Numbered from the stretch's first letter, positions 19,138 to 31,920 are shown. The stretch: DNA of 32,000 bases from Nostoc sp. PCC 7120 = FACHB-418 (GCF_000009705.1 NC_003272.1:1050001-1082000); one strand, 5' to 3'. A program made the numbers and translations. The notes: generated by a model not told the origin, from the sequence alone.

Positions 19138-19575
19138 TTATCCAGAAATACCAGCATCTATAAAGCAATTATCTTTATCCATTGTGATAAGAATACAGTG
19201 TCCAAAAAATAGATTTCCATCGTTATAGTAGAACGCCACTTCACCATCTGGAGAAAAGACTAATCCTTCAAGCATCATTCGGTTTTTGAAATCTTCAGGT
19301 GTTAAAAATATCTCGTCTTCATCGAGCCATGTTTCATTCTTAAGTTCTAACAATTTTTTTACAGCATATTCTTCTGCATTTTTAGCATAATGCTTCAGAT
19401 GTCTTACAAAACTACTAGCTCTAGTCAATATTGATTCGAGTTTATTGTTATCTTCTATTGAAATGCTAATTGAAAGTTGTGTTTCATAAAAAACGACTTG
19501 ACCTTCATAACAATCAAATTTGGTGTCATACCTTAGCTCTCCTAAAATTTCGTGCTTGATATTGGATAAATTCAT
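19138..19575 (-). CDS. DUF2262-like hypothetical protein
   Basis: The C-terminal half (LELKNETWLDEDE..LTPEDF...LEGLVFSPDGEVAFYYNDGNLFFGHCILI....DAGISG) matches my recollection of the DUF2262 pattern. The gene is visibly more AT-rich than its neighbours. Confidence 0.65.
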   Translation of the reverse strand: MNLSNIKHEILGELRYDTKFDCYEGQVVFYETQLSISISIEDNNKLESILTRASSFVRHLKHYAKNAEEYAVKKLLELKNETWLDEDEIFLTPEDFKNRMMLEGLVFSPDGEVAFYYNDGNLFFGHCILITMDKDNCFIDAGISG

Positions 19576-20497: not shown

Positions 20498-23400
20498 TTA
20501 AGCGTTACCGTGACTGACTAACTTTTCCCCTTTCAACATCCGCACTGCGGCTTCTAGTAAAGCCTCTTCTAGGTAAGGTTTGGTGAAGTATCCACTAGCA
20601 CCGAGTTGAATTGCCATTTGTCTGTGTTTATCTGCACCTCTTGAGGTGAGCATAGCAATGGGTAAATGGTTAAGGGTGGAGTCTTTTTGAATACGTGAGA
20701 GCAACTCTAGACCGTCGCAACGAGGCATTTCAATATCGCAGAAGACGATATCACAAGGTAGACCAGAACGCAGCTTGTCCCAGGCTTCCTGACCATCACG
20801 AGCTTGTTCAACGCGATAACCCGCTTTATTAAAGGTGAGGGATAGCAATTCTCGGACGGTGATGGAGTCATCAACAATCAGCACAGTCGGATCAATCTTC
20901 ACAGCCGGAACTTCGATCGCAATTGGTGGTGTCTGTTGCCAAGGTGCGCCACCAGCGTGTTTAGACATTCTTCCTTGGAAGATATCGATAATTTCCAGTA
21001 CATCAGCAATGGGCATAATGCGACCATCACCCAAAACTGTAGCCCCTGCTACACCTATTGGCTTAGGTGCTGGGCCTTCAAATTGTTTAATAACAATTTC
21101 TTGCTCACTCAATACTTGGTCAATCTGGAGAGCGATTAAAGTATTACCCGATCGCACGACGACGACAGAAATCATATCATCATCCCTGGTTCCTCCGTAG
21201 ACGTTACCGCGACCGAGTTGGCGATTGAAAGTTAACAGGTCTTTCAACGGTCGGAAGGGTAAGACTGTATCCCGCCAAGAAATGAATGATTGTCCATCAG
21301 GATTATGTTGGACGTTTTTGCTTGGTATATCTAAGGTATCTTCCACACCATCCATCGAGAAGGCGATCCGTGCTTTATCGGATACACAGCACAGAGCCTT
21401 ACAAATACTCAAGGTTAATGGTAGACGAATTGTGAAGGTGGTTCCTTTGCCAACAGTAGAATCTGTATTTACCGCCCCGCGAATTTCGCTAATTTCGGAA
21501 CGCACCACATCCATTCCCACACCACGACCAGCAATTTCATCAGCTTCATCTTTGGTACTAAAACCAGACTGGAACAGTAGGTCATAAATTTCCAGGCGGG
21601 AAATAGTTCTAGCCTGTTCTAGTGTCATGATTCCCAACTTCACTGCTTTGGCCTTGATCCGTTCTGGATCAATTCCTGCGCCGTCATCCCCTACAGAAAT
21701 TACAGTTTGGTTTCCTTGGTGAAAGGCGCGGATGGTAATAGTTCCCACGGGTGGTTTACCTGCGGCTTCCCTGATTTCCGGGGTTTCTATACCATGAGCG
21801 ATCGCATTGTTGAGCATATGGGTCAGTGGGTCATTGAGATGATCCAAAATCATCTTGTCAATGAGGGTATCGCCACCTTCAATCAATAATTCCACCTGTT
21901 TACCAAACTTGATCGCATTGTCGCGCACTCCTCGCCGCAAACGGTCAATTGTCTGAGAAAATGGCACCATCCGGGCGCGTGTCAGCCCTTCTTGCAGTTG
22001 AGTTGTAACTTGGCGGAATTGTCTGGCTACTCGTTCGGTTTCTTCGGTGACGAAATCAATGTCACTCGCTGACTCCCTCACCCTGACAATCAATTCAATC
22101 ATTTCCTGAGACAGTGTGTGGAAGGGAGTAAAGCGATCCATTTCTAATTCACTAAAACCGCGATCGCTATTTGCATCCGGTACTTCGTAGACAGGCTCTC
22201 TAGTTTTGCGACTAGCTAATAAAGATGCTTCTAAAAGCGATCGCTCATACAACTCCTGCATCCTTGCACCTACGTCTGAGAGCTGTTGCACCTGGACTAG
22301 CAAGTTATCTAATGATTGTCTCAGTCGTTCATGATCCTGCTCTAAGGTGTTGCGATTGACTACTAATTCACCGACCAAATTGCTCATTTCATCCAACTGC
22401 TTGACCGGCACTTTCATCGTTTCTTCAAATCTCGCCGTCCGTCGATTAGAAGTACGCGGAGTTTTGCCTACTGTTGGTTTGACTGGTGATGAGTGGGAGA
22501 TAGTTTGGTCTGCTTCTGCTAACAGTTTCTCCAGATCACTAAATTCATCTCCTAATGGCGCTGGTGTTACAGAAACAGGAGGAGGTGTTTTGATGATTTT
22601 AGCTACAGCAGGTGGTTCATCCAGTACTGTTTCCGGACTGTCTTCACCCAGAAGTGCTTCTAAAGCTGCAAAATCATCTCCTGCTATGGAGTCGTTATCA
22701 GCACTGGATGTAGCTTCTTCTATTTCTAACAATGCTTCTAAATCAGCAAAATCATCTTGAATATAAGTATCTGACTTGACTGATTCTGGGATATCTACTT
22801 CAGTAGAAGCCACATTTTCCACTTCAAACTCGGCTACGTCCTTCGTGGCTGGAGTTATATCTACTAAAAGCCCTGATGAATCTGCAATGTCTTCTGGATT
22901 TTCATCATTGGTCAGAGCTAGCTCCAATTCGCTAGATTCTGAAGTAGATAAAGTAATATCCTCAACCGGAATATCTGTGAAGTTGTGAGTTTCCGCGATT
23001 AACTCATCTAAGGTTAATTCCGATAAATCATCATCTAACTCCAGTTCACTAGTTTCTGCAACTGTTTCTAAACGAGAGGAATCATCAGTCTCATCAAAAG
23101 TGATATCTGTCAAATCACTAGTTGCGGCTGATAAATCATCACCTAACTCCAGTTCACTAGTTTCTGCAACTATTTCTAAACGAGAGGAATCATCAGTCTC
23201 ATCAAAAGTGATATCTGTCAAATCACTAGTTGCGGCTGATAAATCATCACCTAACTCCAGTTCACTAGTTTCTGCAACTGTTTCTAAACGAGAGGAATCA
23301 TCAGGCTCATCAAAAGTGATATCTGTCAAATCACTAGTTAAGGCTGATAAATCATCATCTAAATCCAGTTCACTAGTTTCTGCAACTGTTTCTAAACGAG

Positions 23401-26400
23401 AGGAATCATCAGTCTCATCAAAAGTGATATCTGTCAAATCACTAGTTAAGACTGATAAATCATCATCTAAATCCAGTTCACTAGTTTCTGCAACTGTTTC
23501 TAAACGAGAGGAATCATCAGGCTCATCAAAAGTGATATCTGTCAAATCACTAGTTAAGGCTGATAAATCATCATCTAAATCCAGTTCACTAGTTTCTGCA
23601 ACTGTTTCTAAACGAGAGGAATCATCAGGCTCATCAAAAGTGATATCTGTCAAATCACTAGTTAAGGCTGATAAATCATCACCTAACTCCAGTTCATTAG
23701 TTTCTGCAACTGTTTCTAAACGAGAGGAATCATCAGTCTCATCAAAAGTGATATCTGTCAAATCACTAGTTGCGGCTGATAAATCATCACCTAACTCCAG
23801 TTCACTAGTTTCTGCAACTGTTTCTAAACGAGAGGAATCATCAGTCTCATCAAAAGTGATATCTGTCAAATCACTAGTTAAGGCTGATAAATCATCATCT
23901 AAATCCAGTTCATTAGTTTCTGCAACTGCTGGTGCTGAAAAATCAATACCTGTTTCTAAACCAGAGGAATCGTTTGTTTTTTCAACTGATTGCTGTACAT
24001 CTAAAACGCTTGCAGTTGTGAATAAATCATTATTATCTGAAGTTTCTCTACTTTCTATAACCAGAGAATGGTTATTCTCATTTATTTCACTAAATAAATC
24101 AACTTCCGATTCGTCAACAGGAGATAATTCTTGAATTTGGGTGGTAAATTCGGGGATAAAATCTAAAACTTCTGGTTGTTGTGAAAAATCATGAATTTCT
24201 GGTGAGGAAACTTCACTACTTTCTCTTAAGAATTGGATGTCATCACTAATAATATTAATCCCATGAGTATCATGCGTATTTGCGGTTAATTCCTCAAATA
24301 AATCATCACCTGTATCTGATGCAAATAGCAAATCTAACTGCTGCTCGTCCTGCAAGAAAGTGATATTTAAATCATCTGGATCTAAACTTTCATTCAATGG
24401 TGATGTAAATTGTCGGTTTTCAACAAAAATATCTCCAGAAGCCGCAGCCTCAAACAAACTCTCTTCTAAAGCCTGAGCTATATCTTCCTCTATTGCAGAC
24501 TCTAATATTTGCTCCGGTTCTACTTCAGTTTCCGAGTTCCATAAATCCGCTAAGTTATCTACTGTTGGTGCAAATTCTAATGTTGTTGCTGGTGGTAAAT
24601 CAAATAAATCACTAATTTCTGATTTATCGGTTGATAATTCCGTATTTTCTTCTAAATCATTAAATAAGTTATTTAATGATAAATCTTCTGACAATGTTAT
24701 TAGCTGCGGCTCGGAATTAGTAGGTAGCTTAGTGTCTTCTAAACCCACCACATTTATATCTGTATCTAAAAACAAATCATCAAAATTACTTGAAACTTTT
24801 GTCTGCTCTAATTCATTGCCAGCCTGTATTTTATCATTGATCTTCAATGCCAATAAATCGTCTATGACATCATTGGAATCTGGTAACTGGTTAGTATTAT
24901 CTCTAGCTTCTTGTATTATTTCACCGGCAGTAACTGGGGCTTTAAATAAATCAAGTGATTCTAAATTATTTTTTTCTAAGAAGTTTTCCCCAAACAATAA
25001 GCTTAAGTCTTCTGTATTATTTATAGTGTTCTCAGTCTCTTCTTTATCTTCTTCCAGTGATAGAAAATCGGCGATATCACTATCAACTTCTTCACCTGTA
25101 CTTTCGCTGGCATCCACACCTAAATTACTAGTATTGTTAATATCAATAATTTCTTCTTGTTGCCATGTTTCATCGAATTCTGGTGTCTCACCCTCAAACA
25201 AGTCAGCAAGAGTATTTAACTCAGCTAATCCTACTTCTGGCCCGTGGGTGTGAGTTTTGTTAGTAGTATAGGTTGTTTGGTCGTGATGATCAAATGGAAT
25301 ATCCTTGTGTGCAATATTTTCTGCTATTACACTTTGCGGCGCAAGTTGCTCAGAGATTTCGGTGAGACTAGTTACACTGTCTTTTGGTGACTCAATTAAA
25401 GGCGCCCTAATTTCCTTATTAGTAATTGTAGGTTCAGGTGTGGGGGTTATTGGTGTTATGAATGATTGACTAATAGCAGTGGGAACATCACCAAGTAAAT
25501 TTTGTGCTACTTCTAACAAGGGCATTTCTGGAAAACCCCAGAGTGCTTCTAGTCGGTGACTAATTGTGATCTCAGATTCCCTACTTCGCAGAACTAATTC
25601 TTGAGCCTGTTTAATTTCTGTAATGACAATTTTAGCTAAAGTCAGATAAGTATTTTCTTGATTAGCGATCGCATTAGCTGCGGCTTTGCATAAATTACAC
25701 CAGTTAGGCAAATTCCACGTTTTTCCCAGTTTGACTAGCTGATTGCAGCAGTCCTGTAACTTCTGCCGAGATGCTGATGTTGCTGGTTGCTTAAATATTT
25801 GCAACATCTCCCTGAGTGTTTGTAAAACCTGGGATTGAAACTCACTCCACTGATCGCTATCTGTAGCAACAACGGGAGAATAGGTTGGTAAAACTGGAGA
25901 GGTTTTGGGGGTTACTTCTGCTGGAGTTGCAACATCTTGGCCAAAGAATATTCCTGTGAATGTAACCACACTATCTGCTGTGTTTGGCTTACTTACTGTA
26001 TGGTCACCAATTTCAGCAGTGCCACCTTTTTGTACCAGTTGTTCCAAATGCTCATGTAGCCATTGAAAAACTGGCTCAGTTTCCGACATCAAAGTATTAG
26101 CAACTTCTTCTGATAAACCAAACGGCCCACTTAGCTGTTCTAATAGCGCTTTCAGGGTATCAGACACACCAAGAAATAACGACTCTAGTTTTTGGTCAAC
26201 CTGAATTGGATTGTCTTTAAGAATTTTGAAACAATCTTCTAAACGATGGGAAGTGTGCTGAATGCTAGTTAAACCAAGCATTGCTGCTCCCCCTTTAATG
26301 GAGTGAGCCGCCCGGAAAACTTCGTTGATCATTTCCGGGTCGTTTAAGGTACTTTCAAGATTGAGCAACCCCTGTTCGATTGTATTCAGGTGGTCTCTCG

Positions 26401-26449
26401 CCTCTTCGATAAAGTAACCCAAAATCCTCTGTTGTTGTTCCGGCAGCAT
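20498..26449 (-). CDS. hmpE: Hybrid CheA-like histidine kinase of the Hmp/Pil motility chemosensory system (Hpt, ~1200-aa acidic linker, kinase core, CheW domain, REC)
   Basis: Hpt motif FRAAHSIKGGAAMLGL, N-box HMLNNAIAHGIE, G1 DDGAGID, G2 GRGVGMDVV, a CheW-like domain and a C-terminal REC (LIVDDS...CDIEMPRCDG...KP). Equivalent to Synechocystis PilL and Nostoc punctiforme HmpE. Confidence 0.95.
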   Translation of the reverse strand: MLPEQQQRILGYFIEEARDHLNTIEQGLLNLESTLNDPEMINEVFRAAHSIKGGAAMLGLTSIQHTSHRLEDCFKILKDNPIQVDQKLESLFLGVSDTLKALLEQLSGPFGLSEEVANTLMSETEPVFQWLHEHLEQLVQKGGTAEIGDHTVSKPNTADSVVTFTGIFFGQDVATPAEVTPKTSPVLPTYSPVVATDSDQWSEFQSQVLQTLREMLQIFKQPATSASRQKLQDCCNQLVKLGKTWNLPNWCNLCKAAANAIANQENTYLTLAKIVITEIKQAQELVLRSRESEITISHRLEALWGFPEMPLLEVAQNLLGDVPTAISQSFITPITPTPEPTITNKEIRAPLIESPKDSVTSLTEISEQLAPQSVIAENIAHKDIPFDHHDQTTYTTNKTHTHGPEVGLAELNTLADLFEGETPEFDETWQQEEIIDINNTSNLGVDASESTGEEVDSDIADFLSLEEDKEETENTINNTEDLSLLFGENFLEKNNLESLDLFKAPVTAGEIIQEARDNTNQLPDSNDVIDDLLALKINDKIQAGNELEQTKVSSNFDDLFLDTDINVVGLEDTKLPTNSEPQLITLSEDLSLNNLFNDLEENTELSTDKSEISDLFDLPPATTLEFAPTVDNLADLWNSETEVEPEQILESAIEEDIAQALEESLFEAAASGDIFVENRQFTSPLNESLDPDDLNITFLQDEQQLDLLFASDTGDDLFEELTANTHDTHGINIISDDIQFLRESSEVSSPEIHDFSQQPEVLDFIPEFTTQIQELSPVDESEVDLFSEINENNHSLVIESRETSDNNDLFTTASVLDVQQSVEKTNDSSGLETGIDFSAPAVAETNELDLDDDLSALTSDLTDITFDETDDSSRLETVAETSELELGDDLSAATSDLTDITFDETDDSSRLETVAETNELELGDDLSALTSDLTDITFDEPDDSSRLETVAETSELDLDDDLSALTSDLTDITFDEPDDSSRLETVAETSELDLDDDLSVLTSDLTDITFDETDDSSRLETVAETSELDLDDDLSALTSDLTDITFDEPDDSSRLETVAETSELELGDDLSAATSDLTDITFDETDDSSRLEIVAETSELELGDDLSAATSDLTDITFDETDDSSRLETVAETSELELDDDLSELTLDELIAETHNFTDIPVEDITLSTSESSELELALTNDENPEDIADSSGLLVDITPATKDVAEFEVENVASTEVDIPESVKSDTYIQDDFADLEALLEIEEATSSADNDSIAGDDFAALEALLGEDSPETVLDEPPAVAKIIKTPPPVSVTPAPLGDEFSDLEKLLAEADQTISHSSPVKPTVGKTPRTSNRRTARFEETMKVPVKQLDEMSNLVGELVVNRNTLEQDHERLRQSLDNLLVQVQQLSDVGARMQELYERSLLEASLLASRKTREPVYEVPDANSDRGFSELEMDRFTPFHTLSQEMIELIVRVRESASDIDFVTEETERVARQFRQVTTQLQEGLTRARMVPFSQTIDRLRRGVRDNAIKFGKQVELLIEGGDTLIDKMILDHLNDPLTHMLNNAIAHGIETPEIREAAGKPPVGTITIRAFHQGNQTVISVGDDGAGIDPERIKAKAVKLGIMTLEQARTISRLEIYDLLFQSGFSTKDEADEIAGRGVGMDVVRSEISEIRGAVNTDSTVGKGTTFTIRLPLTLSICKALCCVSDKARIAFSMDGVEDTLDIPSKNVQHNPDGQSFISWRDTVLPFRPLKDLLTFNRQLGRGNVYGGTRDDDMISVVVVRSGNTLIALQIDQVLSEQEIVIKQFEGPAPKPIGVAGATVLGDGRIMPIADVLEIIDIFQGRMSKHAGGAPWQQTPPIAIEVPAVKIDPTVLIVDDSITVRELLSLTFNKAGYRVEQARDGQEAWDKLRSGLPCDIVFCDIEMPRCDGLELLSRIQKDSTLNHLPIAMLTSRGADKHRQMAIQLGASGYFTKPYLEEALLEAAVRMLKGEKLVSHGNA
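23022..23929. repeat. In-frame 108-bp tandem repeat array (about 8.4 copies) inside the CheA-like gene
   Basis: The phase marker CCAGTTCA(C/T)T occurs at 23041, 23149, 23257, 23365, 23473, 23581, 23689, 23797 and 23905, an exact 108-nt spacing. Units encode DDSSRLETVAETSELELGDDLSAATSDLTDITFDET and differ at only a few positions. Confidence 0.95.
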
Positions 26450-26560: not shown

Positions 26561-29512
26561 TTACCTTGTTTCCATTGTTTCTACACGGAAACGTTCCACG
26601 GAAGAAATCAAATCGCGGGACACACCCACTAGGTTTTGCAGTGCGCCGGAAACTCTTTGTGCTTCTTGAGAAGTTTCTTGAGCTGTTAATTCCACCGATT
26701 GCATTACCTGAGCTACAGCACGGGATGTTTCCGTTTGTTCCACAGTATCGCTGGTGATTGAGCGCACCAAAATATCGATGCGATTCGCTACTTGAATAAT
26801 ATTTTCGAGCGATCGCTTGGCTTCTTCTGCCAATTTTGTGCCTTTAATTACCTGTTGTGTGCCTTCTTCCATCGCAGTCATAACTGAGCCTGTTTCGCTC
26901 TGGATTTGCATCACAATTTGCTCAATTTCTTTGAGGGATTTGGCTGATTTATCCGCTAATTGGCGAACTTCATCGGCTACGATCGCAAATCCGCGCCCGG
27001 CTTCTCCCGCCCGCGCCGCCTCAATACTGGCATTGAGTGCTAGTAAGTTAGTTCTGGAAGCAATTTGCGAAATCAAGGCGACAATCTTAGAAATTTCTTG
27101 GGAAGATTCTGCCAAGCGTTTTACCTTCCGGGTAGTTTCCGCGACAGTTTCCCGAATTTCCAAAATCCCCGCCACCGTATTTTCTACTGCTTCTCCACCC
27201 TTGAGAGCGATCGTACTAGCATCACGCGCCACTTTCTCGGCTTCTCGCGCTGCTTCCGCTACCCGTTGAATCGAGTCAGTCATCACCTGTACAGAATTTA
27301 AGGTGACTCCCAACTCTTCGGCTTGGCGCAAAGCATCACTTGATAAGGCTCTAGCAAAGGTTTCCGAATTGGTTGCACCTTTGGTTACTTCCTTAGCCGC
27401 GACTTTTACCTGCTGCACAATGTCCCGCAAGTTTTGAATTGTCAGGTTAAAGGCATCAGCGACGGCTCCAAGTACGTCGGCTGTCACTTCCGCTTGCACT
27501 GTCAAATCACCTCTAGCCGCCCCTTCCACATCATCCAGCAAGCGAATTACTTGACGTTGGAGGTTTTCTTTCGCTTCCTCTTGTTCATCGGCTTTGCGTT
27601 GGGCTTCATTGGTAGTGGTAAAAATTACCCGTGCCATTTCGTTGAAGCCGGCTGATAACTGTCCTAGTTCATCGTTGGAATATACTGTGGCTTGAACATT
27701 TAAGCTGCCTTGACGGACAGCATCAAATTGCGCTTGCAAATCCTTAGTGGTGCGGCGGACTTGTTTGATAGTGACACTCCCCATAAAGGCGGCTGCGGCA
27801 AAACCTGTCATCCCGGCTGCCAAAGACATCGCCCAACTTGTGTACCGCAATGATTCCCGTTGTTGGGGAGGAGCAATGTTAGTAGCGGTAAAGCTAACTG
27901 TTGCCACAACTAAGGCGGAGAACACACCCACAACCCCACCAACCAACCAAGGTTTTGTGTCTAGGGAAGCGTTTTCTAATGGTGCTAACCAACCTTGCTC
28001 GACATTGACATTAGCTTCTACCTTGGGGACATCTGCTTGGCTAAAGATTGGTACAGCTTCTTGGGAACCGGTGATGCTAAATAGCTCCTCATCGCGTTCT
28101 GTAGCATTATTTGCAGTTTCTGCAACTTTACCTCTTGGGATACTATTAATTTCCGTAGAACTGGAAAGCATCACATCACTAAAGCTGGAATCTGCTTCTG
28201 CCAGATCAAACCCAGGAATATTACCTAAATCATCAAATTCATCAAAATCGTCTAAAAATTCGATATTACTTTTAGAGTTTTCTTTATTGAAGATAATGCT
28301 TGTATCTTCGTCATTTGTTATACTTTCTGTTCCGAAAGCCGATTCAAATGCTTCAAAATCAAAACTCTCATCAGCATCAAAGTTATTCATCTCCTCTTTG
28401 AGCATATCTGGAGATGGTGATTTCATAGTAAAACCACTATTAACAGATGCTGGTGACTCTAATATCTCTTCTTGAGAAGCTATTTCCTGTAACCAATTAT
28501 TTGATTCAGGATGAGCAATATCACCTAGACTATCATTAGGCAAATTCTCTAGGGGCATGAAGCCATTCATGACTTCTTCTTTACCCGGTGAGAAATTTTC
28601 CGGTTCTGGCTTGCTTTTATCTATCTCTAATTCGTCTGTGGTATCTTCTTGATTGTTTTCTATTAAGAATTCAGCTACAGAAGCTTGCCCAATAAAACTG
28701 TTTGTTGTGTCGAATTCGGCAAAAGGTGAATCAATATTGCTTTGGTGATAGCCGGCGACCGAATTTAGGTCATCGGTTGGCGGTTCTGTGCCACTATCCA
28801 ATAAATTATCGGTCTGTGGTTCTTCTAGGCTCTCTTCCTGCCAGAACATCGGTAACTCTAATTCCGCTTGTTCTTGATTTGAGTCTGTCTTTTGCTCTTC
28901 TTCTCGCTCAAGGTTCAACGCAAAAGGATCATCACTAAAATCTGGTATAGACTCTATAGATTCTGGGTTTTCATTAAAAGAAATACTATCTGTAGGTGTT
29001 TCAAAAGGATTATCTAAAGATAAATCTTCTGTGTTTACTACTGATTCTTGTGTTTCTAAAGCATTTAAATCGAAGTTGTTGCTGTCAAAATCTCCAATTG
29101 AACCCAAATCTTCTAATTCTAATTCCTCTGATTCTTTAAAGGCAAATACACCCAGATCTATGGATTCATTGCTGTTAAGATTAGCAGACTGTTCAGCAAT
29201 TGATTGTTGATAATGGCTAATATTTTCCAGACCACTTTGAGCAAATCCAATAAGTTCAAAGTCATCAGTTAACTGTATGACCTGTTCATATTCTGCTGTT
29301 GCCACATCGTACTGCTGCAAAACATAGTAAATGTGACCCCGCAACAAATGAAAATTAGGGTCATCTGGTACATTCTGCACAACCTGATCAACTAAACTGG
29401 CGGCAACTTCATATTTTTGTTCCGCGTAGGCTGTACAAGCCTGCTGATACTTTTCGAGGTATTCTTCTATACTTGCTGCCATTTGCTCCCCTCCCAATTT
29501 CATCCTGCCCAC
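26561..29512 (-). CDS. hmpD: Methyl-accepting chemotaxis protein (TPR-like N-terminus, acidic region, TM hairpin, HAMP, MA domain)
   Basis: C-terminal MCP signalling domain ([31 protein letters not shown]), a HAMP region and two TM helices 16 aa apart. The track start at 29512 is GTG and overlaps cheW by 13 nt. The ATG at 29482 follows GGGAGGGGAG and is the more likely start. Confidence 0.93.
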
Positions 29513-30030
29513 CTCGCACTCCGCAAAATTGCCATCTGGTCGAGTAGTCTTAGAGATTGGTTGTTTTTAGGCTCTAATAACCACTCTCCCCGCAAAAATG
29601 GAGCCATAGTATCCGGTATGCTTGTAGGTGGCATGAGATTTTGTACATCCAGCCAGTCCATACCGCCGATTTCATCCACAGCTAAACCCACAGTTGTGTC
29701 TTGCTCCTGAACTGCAATCACCGGAATTTCTGCTCGGTCTGTGTTTAACGGAGTTGCTTCCCCTAGAAATTGACCCAAATCTGCCACCCAAATTACTCGA
29801 CCTCGTAAATTTAGAGTACCCAAAAGTAAAGGAGAAGCATTAGGAATCGGGGTAATTCTATCAGGACTTAGTTCCATCACCTCTCGGATACCAGTTGCGG
29901 GTAGTGCAAACTCCTGATGCGAGGGAATATAAAACCGTAGATGTAACTCACCTTCAGGACTTTCTACTTGTAATTCTGGGCGGAAATGATCTTGACCACC
30001 GCCATTTAAAAAGTCCGGTTTGCTGACCAT
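29500..30030 (-). CDS. hmpC: CheW-like coupling protein
   Basis: Single CheW domain (…[23 protein letters not shown]…) between the CheY and MCP genes. Equivalent to PilI. Confidence 0.92.
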
Positions 30031-30043
30031 ATTGTTTTCATCC

Positions 30044-30409
30044 TTATCCTCGCAGTAGTTGTTTGACTGTTCCCACCAATTCGGTTGGTTGAAACGGTTT
30101 TGCTATGTAAGCATCCGCACCTTGTTTCATACCCCAGTAGCGGTCAAATTCTTCTCCTTTAGAAGAACACATCACTACCGGGACATTTTGGGTTTTTGGA
30201 TCTGACTTTAATCGACGGCAAACTTCGTAGCCATTCATTTTGGGCATGACAATATCTAGGACTACGAGATCGGGAGGTTCTTCTTTGATTGCCTCTAATG
30301 CTTCTAATCCGTCAGTTGCATGGGTAACTGTTAAGCCACTAGCTTTCAGGAGGTCTGTAATCATCTCCCTCTGTGCAAGACTGTCTTCCACAATCAGAAC
30401 TGTACTCAT
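30044..30409 (-). CDS. hmpB: CheY-like single-domain response regulator
   Basis: 121-aa REC domain with VLIVEDS, phospho-acceptor context VVLDIVMPKMNG and conserved K (YIAKPF). Equivalent to PilH. Confidence 0.93.
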   Translation of the reverse strand: MSTVLIVEDSLAQREMITDLLKASGLTVTHATDGLEALEAIKEEPPDLVVLDIVMPKMNGYEVCRRLKSDPKTQNVPVVMCSSKGEEFDRYWGMKQGADAYIAKPFQPTELVGTVKQLLRG

Positions 30410-30633
30410 AAATGGCTATCTACCTCCTGATGTAGACGTTCCTGTTTGGAACATTCCCTGATCTCCCCACAATAATTACTGTATAAATTAATTCTATTGT
30501 TTGGTTAATTGTCTTGATAATACTTTGTCTCGGAGTAGGTTGATTCTGTGATAACATCTTTTACCCCATATTTTACGGAATCAACAAGTCTAAATAGGGG
30601 CTAGGGATGAGAGAAAAGGTGTCCCGCCACTTT

Positions 30634-30693
30634 GGTAATAGATAATTACGAATGGGTAATAGGCCTATTACCTATTACCCATTACCCATTACC
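30634..30693. repeat. STRR heptamers (GGTAAT / ATTACC) in inverted orientation, overlapping the 3' end of the PatA-type RR gene
   Basis: GGTAAT-type units on the left and TTACCTA TTACCCA TTACCCA TTACCAA on the right. An 18-bp palindrome GGTAATAGG|CCTATTACC sits at 30655-30672. Confidence 0.8.
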
Positions 30694-31920
30694 AAATTCC
30701 CATCCCTTGGTGGGCGAGGATTTTAAGTATTTTTCTACAAGCATGAGTAATTCATCATCATTAAAAGGTTTTATGAGGTAATCTGTTGCCCCGGCCATCC
30801 TAGCTCTGATTTGATCTATAAATTTATCTTTACTACTCAACATAATCATCGGTATATACCGAAATACTTGAGATTGACGCAGCATGGCACAAATCTCATA
30901 ACCATTTAGTTCGGGTGAGGAAATGTCACAGAAAACTAAATTTGGTCGGAGTTGAAAAATTAGACCTAAAGCTTCTAGGGGATTAGTTAACACGATTACT
31001 TCCGGTATAGTGTAGCCCGTCGTTTCATATCCTCGCGCTTGCAGAATAGACTCTACAGTTTCACAAATACTTTTTGTATCGTCAATACAGAGGATTTTTG
31101 CTTTCTTGTGGTTCCCTGGTATGTGGATGTTGATCTGACAATTATTTGGTTCTGGATAGGTTAGTTTTAACCAACCTTGTTGTACATACGGGTAGATAAC
31201 CTTGGCAACTGTCAAAATGTCCCGGTTGAGATAACGTGCTAGTTGACGTAAAGTAGTTTTTCCATCAGCCCATTGTTCGAGTTTATTCATTGTGGCTTCT
31301 GGAAGTGATGAGTTTATGTGAACTCTTTCAGCTAATATTGGCAATTGTTCTGGAGAATGAATATAGGGATATAGCTCGTGCCATTCTTGTAATTGTTGGG
31401 TGGCTTGAGTGACTAATGGCGAAATCTCCCAGGTAGTTAATCGGGGAGCGATCGCTGTATCCTGACAAAAAATAAACCTCCCTTGGTGTAAACTCAACAA
31501 GTCAAATAATGTCTCACCAACCAAACGGTAGATAATATTTTCAGCTATTTGAGGATTAATAATATTCCGCTCTAATAACAGCCAAAGATAGTCATATTCT
31601 GAAGAATTAAGTTTACCTAAACTAGTCAGATATTGTTCGTTTAGGCCTATTTCTACGCGATAGTAACGCAAATAGCCATCAATCCGCGAAAAATTACTAT
31701 CTCCTTCTTGGCAATAAATTATTTGCCCATTCAGAAAAAATATCAGCCAATATTTTTGCTGGTAGTTCCTAAAATAATCTGCTCCCTCTGCATCTTCTTT
31801 AGCATTTTGATTACCTTTGTACAAGCTAGGTGCTTCAATCAAAAGTTGCCCAGTTCGCTGTCCCAGTTCAATCAATTGCAGGATACTGCGAATATCGATT
31901 TCATGTAAACTTCCCTGCAT
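30682..31920 (-). CDS. hmpA: PatA-type response regulator (N-terminal PATAN/DUF4388 domain + C-terminal REC)
   Basis: N-terminal MQGSLHEIDIRSILQLIELGQRTGQL is typical of the PATAN domain. C-terminal REC (ILCIDD...CDISSPELNGYE...IKPF). Equivalent to PilG. Confidence 0.9.
   Translation of the reverse strand: MQGSLHEIDIRSILQLIELGQRTGQLLIEAPSLYKGNQNAKEDAEGADYFRNYQQKYWLIFFLNGQIIYCQEGDSNFSRIDGYLRYYRVEIGLNEQYLTSLGKLNSSEYDYLWLLLERNIINPQIAENIIYRLVGETLFDLLSLHQGRFIFCQDTAIAPRLTTWEISPLVTQATQQLQEWHELYPYIHSPEQLPILAERVHINSSLPEATMNKLEQWADGKTTLRQLARYLNRDILTVAKVIYPYVQQGWLKLTYPEPNNCQINIHIPGNHKKAKILCIDDTKSICETVESILQARGYETTGYTIPEVIVLTNPLEALGLIFQLRPNLVFCDISSPELNGYEICAMLRQSQVFRYIPMIMLSSKDKFIDQIRARMAGATDYLIKPFNDDELLMLVEKYLKSSPTKGWEFGNG

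Follow-up and report, generated by a model that had tools for sequence, protein, structure and literature searches.

The kinase gene and its cluster

The minus strand of a 32,000-nucleotide stretch of the Nostoc sp. PCC 7120 chromosome (NC_003272.1:1050001-1082000; hereafter the window, with positions counted from the first letter of the whole stretch) carries a coding sequence for a CheA-REC (receiver) hybrid kinase of HmpE/PilL type, 1983 amino acids (aa) in length, at 20498..26449. The gene was identified from the list of open reading frames (ORFs), the translation, Pfam searches and Foldseek comparison of the AlphaFold2 (AF2) model of the core. Our subject is the middle of this protein, a long acidic region between the Hpt domain and the kinase core, which a model reading the DNA alone (the sequence-only reading) had described as one linker and tentatively read as a docking scaffold. 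The region proved to be composite, and we suggest that it could serve as a polyanionic tether with docking motifs in place of the P2 domain of classical CheA. All features described below are on the minus strand.

The domain organization of the kinase was determined by Pfam. The Hpt domain (P1) was found at aa 9-107 (26129..26425; PF01627, E 2e-18) and is near-invariant among orthologues; its phospho-acceptor motif is AAHSIKGGA, with His49 in the HxxKGG context. The kinase core and receiver together occupy 20498..22429, as also supported by AF2 (mean predicted local distance difference test score, pLDDT, 79) and Foldseek. Within this segment were detected the P3 domain H-kinase_dim (aa 1343-1399; 22253-22423), the P4 domain HATPase_c (aa 1540-1679; 21413-21832) and the CheW-like P5 domain (aa 1685-1822; 20984-21397), in the order that membership of the CheA family requires, followed by REC (aa 1856-1967; 20549-20884; Response_reg, E 4e-27). 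The phospho-acceptor residues of REC are conserved, the equivalents of D12/D13/D57/T87/K109 being D/D/D/T/K. The AF2 model of the core matched the CheA P3-P4-P5 structures 1b3q, 6s1k, 3ja6 and 2ch4 with E-values of 1e-30 to 1e-34. No P2 domain was matched by Pfam at E <= 0.1 in the 1983-aa kinase, in agreement with the sequence-only reading that P2 is lacking from its classical position. Likewise, Pfam and NCBIfam searches of aa 140-1340 detected no folded alpha/beta P2, and no match other than a repeat-summed one to DUF5335 (see below).

Upstream genes of the same cluster were identified by Pfam at 26561..31920. They encode a PatA-type regulator with DUF4388/PATAN and REC (30682-31920), a CheY-like protein of 121 aa (30044-30409), CheW (29500-30030) and an MCP (methyl-accepting chemotaxis protein) of 983 aa with an N-terminal TPR (aa 22-83), HAMP and the signalling domain (26561-29512). 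The order PatA-type regulator, CheY, CheW, MCP and CheA is the same as the hmpA-E order of N. punctiforme, as listed in PMC10581220. The domain set, the AF2 core match and this gene order bear out the assignment to HmpE/PilL made from the sequence alone. Judged from these sequence comparisons, the gene is a pilus-class CheA-REC hybrid of HmpE/PilL type and an ordinary member of its family, and orthology would give it kinase activity and a role in the control of type IV pilus motility. The four upstream gene products are candidate partners of the kinase motifs described below. TPR domains frequently bind short acidic peptides, and the TPR region of the MCP (aa 22-83) is one such candidate.

Two further observations were made around the kinase gene. 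The intergenic segment 26457-26560, between the stop codon of the MCP gene (26561) and the kinase start (26449), is composed of stacked heptanucleotide tandem repeats (on the minus strand, AGTCCAA x3, TGACTAA x~3, TTGACTG x3 and TTGACTA x4); this stack, directly upstream of the kinase start codon, resembles the STRR (short tandemly repeated repetitive) repeats of heterocystous cyanobacteria. The gene for a DUF2262 protein of 145 aa (19138-19575) follows the kinase gene at a distance of about 900 bp downstream and has no evident link to the cluster.

Anatomy of the region between Hpt and kinase core

The sequence-only reading had described 22432-26032, corresponding to aa 140-1340 of the kinase, as an acidic linker of ~1200 aa that makes up about 60% of CheA and has almost no basic residues. 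The acidity is real, but it is not uniform. The acidic part proper was found to extend only over aa ~401-1340, that is, 940 aa or 47% of the protein, with 28.1% D+E, 3.4% K+R and a net charge of about -232. For aa 141-400 the corresponding values are 11% D+E and 7.7% K+R, so the near-absence of basic residues holds for aa 401-1340 and not for the preceding segment. Only aa 401-1340 falls on the disordered side of the charge-hydropathy boundary, and its composition suggests that the whole tether of aa ~401-1340 is disordered. The description as a single linker was also wrong in detail, overlooking a second conserved domain (aa ~201-305) and an array of tandem repeats. In all 120 listed homologues, all of them from Nostocales and 1643-2265 aa long, the stretch from Hpt to P3 measures 870-1487 aa and contains 20-24.5% D+E and 2.1-4.7% K+R.

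The second conserved domain, herein referred to as D2, was recognized at aa ~201-305 (25535..25849) by the conservation map, composition and BLAST. It is non-acidic (net charge +3), probably helical, and among the best conserved parts of the entire protein. Since the segment is strongly conserved and non-acidic, it should be regarded as a second domain and not as linker. D2 contains Cys and Trp (W..F...V..LREMLQ.FKQ ... C..L..LG..W.LP.W..L ... EIKQAQELVL), and by BLAST the majority of the 150 family representatives possess it; these were obtained as representatives of 50%-identity clusters by an exhaustive HMMER search with aa 1221-1983. There is no His at the Hpt-equivalent position. No support was obtained for D2 being a degenerate Hpt: comparison of the D1 and D2 profiles by hhalign gave a probability of <1%, similarity of the aa 201-305 profile to Hpt being undetectable, and the Pfam search of D2 returned only noise and no match.

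The acidic part begins with a zone carrying LxDLF-type motifs (aa 401-826; 23972..25249; net charge -95), delimited by composition and by the conservation map, which was constructed from 58 Nostocales orthologues after exclusion of near-identical ones. Against a median identity of 0.24 over this probably disordered zone, conserved islands with an identity of 0.9-1.0 were found at aa 402-432, 480-495, 556-561, 590-596, 611-617, 660-676, 714-720 and 750-770. The most conserved island of the linker, GPEVGLAELNTLADLFEGETPEFDETWQQEE, is located at aa 402-432 (25154..25246; identity 0.9-1.0 in Nostocales). Its consensus GPEVGxAELNSLADLFEGE...W..EE persists over 118 diverse representatives, as do DDLxxLFG and LxDLF.

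The number of motifs exceeds the expectation from composition. In aa 401-835, 12 L[FW] dipeptides were observed against 3.2 +/- 1.6 expected, and eight [DE]L[FW] tripeptides against 0.8 expected; none of 5000 composition-preserving shuffles reached the observed count of either. All ten D-L-F/W strings quoted by the sequence-only reading are present exactly as written, and that reading had made its docking idea depend on their conservation in position or number among orthologues. The motifs withstood this check. Six of the ten (aa 414, 482, 556, 592, 612 and 714) keep L and F at 0.91-1.00, and all three of the DDFxxLExLL motifs described below are conserved; three of the ten (aa 705, 783 and 807) are not conserved among the 58 Nostocales orthologues; the motif at aa 633 keeps only its W. 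Another conserved motif that was absent from the list, ESLF, was found at aa 663-666. The motif logo from 1199 sites in 121 representatives reads L(-3) D D L F [G/D/E] E E. Each of the 120 listed homologues carries 9-24 L[FW] dipeptides. The L-F count rises with linker length (r = 0.60). Conserved islands amid a variable, disordered background form the pattern that docking motifs, or short linear motifs, would be expected to leave, and to this extent the docking-scaffold idea gained partial support, which does not extend to the number or identity of the partners, to a role of HmpF or PilB/PilT or to polar clustering.

Near the other end of the acidic part, just before the kinase core, three copies of DDF(A/S)xLExLL had been reported, and all three were confirmed as written at 22727-22759, 22649-22681 and 22520-22552. 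The first, M1 (QDDFADLEALL; aa 1231-1241; 22727..22759), is nearly invariant in 53 Nostocales; in the second, M2 (GDDFAALEALL; aa 1257-1267; 22649..22681), the residues D, F, A, L, E, L and L are invariant in the same 53. The third, M3 (GDEFSDLEKLLAEADQT; aa 1300-1316; 22502..22552, with its core string at 22520-22552), is located about 39 aa before P3 and has D/F/D/L/E/L/L/A invariant. The prefix D[DE]F alone is not enriched (three observed against 1.4 expected), and the significance rests on the full pre-core motif and its sequence conservation, not on D[DE]F. Across 118 diverse family members M1-M3 are still the consensus, and their spacing from the dimerization domain is fixed: motifs of the form [DEN]F..[LIMV][DEAQ].[LIMF][LIM] occur about 39, 85 and 110 aa before P3, with the family consensus sequences DEFxDLExLLExAD, DFxDLEALL (that of M2) and DxFxDLEALL. 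Among the 150 representatives, 110 motif instances lie at the M3 position, 30-48 aa before P3, and [DE][ILVM][DE]ALL was observed 162 times against 2.8 expected (58-fold), concentrated 60-140 aa before P3. The 120 listed Nostocales homologues have two to three copies of the pre-core motif per protein, and no other copy was found among the ORFs of the window.

The structure of aa 1221-1983 was predicted by AF2 with 66 diverse representatives as the alignment (mean pLDDT 79.3); an earlier prediction of the same segment with 53 Nostocales sequences gave a mean pLDDT of 49.9 and was unusable. Helices were predicted at aa 1235-1242 (M1), 1261-1267 (M2) and 1304-1316 (M3), with pLDDT of about 63-74. 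The M3 helix reaches about 66-74, and a local rise of pLDDT was noted at M1, while the spacers between M1, M2 and M3 stay at <50. Helical motifs within low-pLDDT spacers are the usual signature of motifs that fold upon binding. The region of aa 401-1340 thus has the features of molecular recognition features (MoRFs), namely, disorder-type composition, conserved islands and, for M1-M3, helical propensity in AF2.

The kinase family was followed among cyanobacteria by scanning one genome per species. It was found in Nostocales, Leptolyngbyales, Elainellales, Oscillatoriales, Chroococcidiopsis, Thermosynechococcus, Spirulinaceae and Chroococcales, and the design is common to all cyanobacterial relatives examined. 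Among the 150 representatives the linker is about 550-1740 aa long and contains 18-35% D+E and 0.6-9% K+R; D2 is usually present, the C-terminal REC is always present in the family, and many of the HMMER alignments begin exactly at M1. The strict motif pattern fails in, for example, Thermosynechococcus, but x-[DE]-L-[DE]-x-L-L repeats, four to six in number, are still present there within the 170 aa that precede P3. A split gene like that of Synechocystis occurs in unicellular Chroococcales (loci L057, L060, L063, L070, L071, L077, L078 and L079), where the kinase half has no Hpt and begins within the acidic linker, at a point 250-450 aa ahead of P3. The split kinase halves keep L-F motifs and EFKDLEALLEQADRTMGGPP, with EFKDLEALL motifs in the acidic tail. 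Two loci outside this range, assigned to 'Candidatus Sericytochromatia' (L028, 8.4 kb) and 'Tatlockia sp.' (L061, 2.7 kb), also encode the cyanobacterial-type kinase with 60-64% identity. The full set of three pre-core motifs is present in L028 and a single one in L061; both are most likely mis-binned cyanobacterial contigs.

Between the LxDLF motifs and M1 lies the acidic repeat zone (aa 827-1182; 22904-23971; net charge -112 by composition). An in-frame tandem repeat of 108 bp, in 8.4 copies of 96% identity, was detected by Tandem Repeats Finder (TRF) at 23022..23928. The unit is 36 aa, DSSRLETVAETSELxLxDDLSAxTSDLTDITFDExD, ending with ...DLTDITFDETD, and eight units are in register. The array, which is absent from the sequence-only reading, supplies about 300 aa of the linker. 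Past aa ~780, sequence conservation among the 58 orthologues falls to a mean identity of 0.11. Near-exact tandem repeats were found between the L-F islands and M1 in 94 of 121 proteins of the Nostocales set (the window protein and its 120 listed matches), with a period of 27-65 aa; both the period and the unit sequence differ by lineage. The units were surveyed in 93 proteins with at least 100 aa in such repeats, taken from the Nostocales set and the family representatives. F or W is present in the units of 91 of the 93 and L[FW] in those of 65, and the units contain on average 27% D+E and 0.3 K+R per unit. Given lineage-specific units at one and the same zone and the near-constant F or W, sequence comparison indicates that duplication has filled this zone again and again with acidic-aromatic modules, re-invented in each lineage. 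A Pfam match to DUF5335 (E 4e-16) was discarded: each 36-aa unit matches profile positions 28-57 only weakly, the score arises by summation over the units, and the match is likely compositional. The PCC 7120 protein carries a precomputed DUF5335 assignment, which versions with few repeats lack.

The exact number of units deserves caution. The closest database protein is that of Nostoc sp. PCC 7120 itself, identical outside the repeat array, and other database versions carry six, five, two or one units instead of eight, again with 100% identity outside the array. The shorter versions come largely from draft or automated assemblies, whereas the exact window protein, with eight units, is encoded on a complete 6.41-Mb chromosome (CP183817.1). 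For this reason the proposal of a strain-level copy-number polymorphism (8/6/5/2/1) was withdrawn, collapse of the array in short-read assembly being at least as likely as real variation. The same disagreement between assemblies of one strain, a sign that the array is hard to assemble, could be taken to mean that the whole pattern is an artefact, either a chance low-complexity pattern or a mis-assembled or degenerate gene. This explanation is hardly credible. The ORF is intact and present in a complete chromosome, and the same architecture and motifs occur in hundreds of species; for the motifs the artefact is already refuted, and only the exact repeat number is uncertain.

A more serious alternative is that the region works as a purely entropic and electrostatic spacer, for which only length, charge and disorder matter, the motifs being a by-product of biased composition and internal duplication. 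Such a spacer could give mobility to Hpt, extend to kinase or pilus sites that lie far away, or keep membranes and nucleic acid off by repulsion. This would agree with a composition kept within the above limits while the length varies about three-fold, and with a repeat zone that has no conserved sequence and tolerates many different units. However, shuffling that keeps the composition never yields the observed L[FW] count, the islands are 90-100% identical over Nostocales and several of them persist phylum-wide at fixed distances from P3, and newly evolved repeat units nearly always hold an aromatic residue. We therefore consider a pure spacer unlikely. This explanation and the two discussed below, regulation in cis and clustering, are not mutually exclusive with docking.

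A proposed docking role and its alternatives

The reading that we favour, with a confidence that stands about midway between acceptance and doubt, is that the region is a polyanionic tether with docking motifs replacing P2. The region is a composite of four parts: D2; about eight positionally conserved LxDLF-type motifs (aa 402-770), with which the tether begins; the lineage-specific repeat array (aa 827-1182); and, about 110, 85 and 39 aa before the dimerization domain, three amphipathic-helix motifs D-F-x-D-L-E-A-L-L. The tether would stand in for P2 and for the short linkers that classical CheA has here. M1-M3 would be docking helices beside the kinase core that fold upon binding and hold the N-terminal half with its Hpt and/or a receiver protein, which could be the PatA-type HmpA/PilG, the CheY-like HmpB or the REC of the kinase itself; holding such a partner near the core would raise its local concentration for phosphotransfer. 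Multivalency could come from the LxDLF motifs farther upstream together with the repeat units, as a large number of weak sites with the same chemistry, and the charge would keep the chain expanded, so that Hpt might range tens of nanometres from the array. HmpA/PilG, HmpB, the own REC and the Hpt/D2 half are the candidate partners.

This reading is suggested by four lines of evidence: the region lies between P1 and P3 in a family that always has REC and here lacks P2; its conservation has the form of short linear motifs; published two-hybrid data point to a corresponding part of a split relative; and the core DLEALL or DLDALL of the helices resembles EIDALL of FliM, which is taken only as a lead. 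In the two-hybrid analysis of Synechocystis (PMC7656254), a PilL-C (Hik43) fragment from which the C-terminal 614 aa are missing retains the binding of PilL-N (Hik36) and PilG (Rre6), while deletion of the N-terminal 360 aa of PilL-C abolishes the binding of both; PilH does not bind. The binding part of PilL-C runs up to and including the dimerization domain, and in the related split proteins of Chroococcales the stretch before this domain is the acidic linker tail.

The same data could be explained if the helices act within the molecule, binding in cis to the own REC, P4 or Hpt/D2 and thereby gating phosphotransfer, by autoinhibition or as a phosphate-sink switch, or else holding the Hpt half on the core. 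PilL-N and PilL-C interact through the N-terminal part of PilL-C, and the naturally split genes leave the motifs on the kinase half; in addition, the family always carries a C-terminal REC, and in PixL the REC controls the kinase output (PMC11181946). Yet the fragment that binds PilL-N also binds PilG, and cis regulation leaves the 10-25 upstream L-F motifs and the amplified motif-bearing repeats unexplained. We consider regulation of this kind unlikely.

The rise of multivalency with linker length, the amplification of motif-bearing units in tandem and the very high net charge would also fit a sticker-and-spacer scaffold. In such a scaffold, the polyanionic chain would carry aromatic residues and leucines as stickers, and these, perhaps helped by divalent cations or a basic partner, would drive condensation or a polar and septal clustering of the Hmp array near the pilus rings. 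At about -0.25 net charge per residue, however, self-association is disfavoured unless a counter-ion partner is present, and conservation as precise as that of M1-M3 speaks more for stereospecific binding than for generic stickers. We regard clustering of this kind as very unlikely.

Returning to the docking tether, several observations weigh against it and account for our reserve. The variation of linker length between about 550 and 1740 aa and the lack of sequence conservation in the repeat zone are predicted equally well by a pure spacer. The AF2 evidence consists of single-chain pLDDT and helices, and it is silent on docking to REC, P3, P4 or P5. The published binding fragment of PilL-C includes the dimerization domain, and the site could be P3 instead of the linker tail. 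The likeness to FliM is imperfect in three respects. An invariant F three residues upstream of the core hexamer has no counterpart in FliM. A profile of 111 M1/M2 instances retrieved from the PDB sequences no FliM, FliY or CheY-binding protein, and only one irrelevant match (E 4.1); homology of M1/M2 to FliM_N was accordingly rejected and only the resemblance was kept. Lastly, of the FliM contacts Y106, A103, I95, K119 and K122 on E. coli CheY, the three local RECs keep Y106 and A103, but I95, K119 and K122 are not uniformly kept. The sequence likeness to FliM may thus serve as a lead only.

More tentatively still, cyanobacterial pilus-type CheAs may have replaced P2 by evolvable, multivalent acidic docking helices, composed of a fixed EIDALL-like receiver-binding trio and an LxDLF field rebuilt by tandem duplication; this generalization is possible but, in our estimate, doubtful. 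If it is true, the array would tune the number of response-regulator or pilus-motor-associated molecules around the phosphodonor, and the distance from the receptor array at which Hpt delivers phosphate.

The anatomy described here bears on how REC-fused CheA kinases without P2 find and select two response regulators, in type IV pilus steering of cyanobacteria (Hmp, Tax1 and Tax3) and, by analogy, in Pseudomonas and Myxococcus. It provides concrete targets for mutation, that is, three 9-residue motifs adjacent to the core, one 30-residue island (aa 402-432) and about seven further LxDLF sites, which allow regulator selection, phosphate-sink control and spatial reach to be studied. A cytoplasmic signalling kinase in which a fixed zone is filled by different tandem repeats in each lineage is unusual for bacteria, and the turnover of this zone is a natural experiment on how strongly a disordered tether depends on its valency and its length. 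Given the probable collapse of the array, gene models of this kinase from short-read or draft genomes may understate its length.

Comparison with known systems

HmpE of Nostoc punctiforme (Npun_F5964) and PilL, or PilL-N plus PilL-C (Hik36/Hik43, Tax3), of Synechocystis have the same order of Hpt ... P3-P4-P5-REC and no P2. Nothing differs in kind between these kinases and the window kinase, which is an orthologue. The cyanobacterial papers covered here treat the kinase as Hpt, core and REC. In the literature on HmpE, the PilL linker, disorder and acidic regions, no description of the middle region was found, the original hmp paper being outside this coverage; the anatomy of the region, with motifs, D2 and repeat zone, appears to be undescribed.

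In a survey of 13,673 CheA architectures, REC-bearing CheAs are usually without P2 (PMC10782961). The survey covers Hpt multiplicity, extended dimerization domains in the cyanobacterial CheAs of the type IV pilus (Tfp) class and REC fusions, with no mention of disordered linkers or motifs. In classical CheA of E. coli and T. maritima, with the order P1-P2-P3, P2 takes the same position between Hpt and the dimerization domain and is flanked by flexible linkers (PMC10782961). The presumed task is also the same, namely, to bring the response regulator close to P1. The window kinase, in contrast, has no folded P2 but ~940 aa of probable polyanionic disorder with short helical motifs and a repeat array, 5-10 times longer.

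The disordered C-terminal peptide of CheZ forms an acidic helix on the alpha4-beta5-alpha5 face of CheY-P. The N-terminus of FliM is likewise disordered and binds CheY-P between helices alpha4 and alpha5, with the core EIDALL (PMC6700473, PMC9126983). As in these two systems, the FliM/FliY N-terminal peptide (LSQxEIDALL) and the CheZ C-terminal peptide, the kinase motifs are short acidic amphipathic helices, predicted here, within disorder. The core hexamer is acid-aliphatic-acid-A-L-L both in the kinase family (DLEALL or DLDALL) and in FliM (EIDALL). The kinase motifs carry a D-[DE]-F prefix and no LSQ, and they are internal and present in two to six copies, whereas the FliM motif is N-terminal and single and belongs to a switch protein. 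To our knowledge, cyanobacteria have no flagellar switch.

ChpA of Pseudomonas aeruginosa is also a giant CheA of the Tfp class with a C-terminal REC, no P2 and an expansion between the first Hpt and the core. The non-phosphorylatable Xpt domains of ChpA were proposed to act as scaffolds (PMC12632253). The expansion of ChpA is composed of folded Hpt-like domains (about nine Hpt/Xpt), whereas that of the window kinase consists of one extra conserved domain and arrays of motifs in a probably disordered chain.

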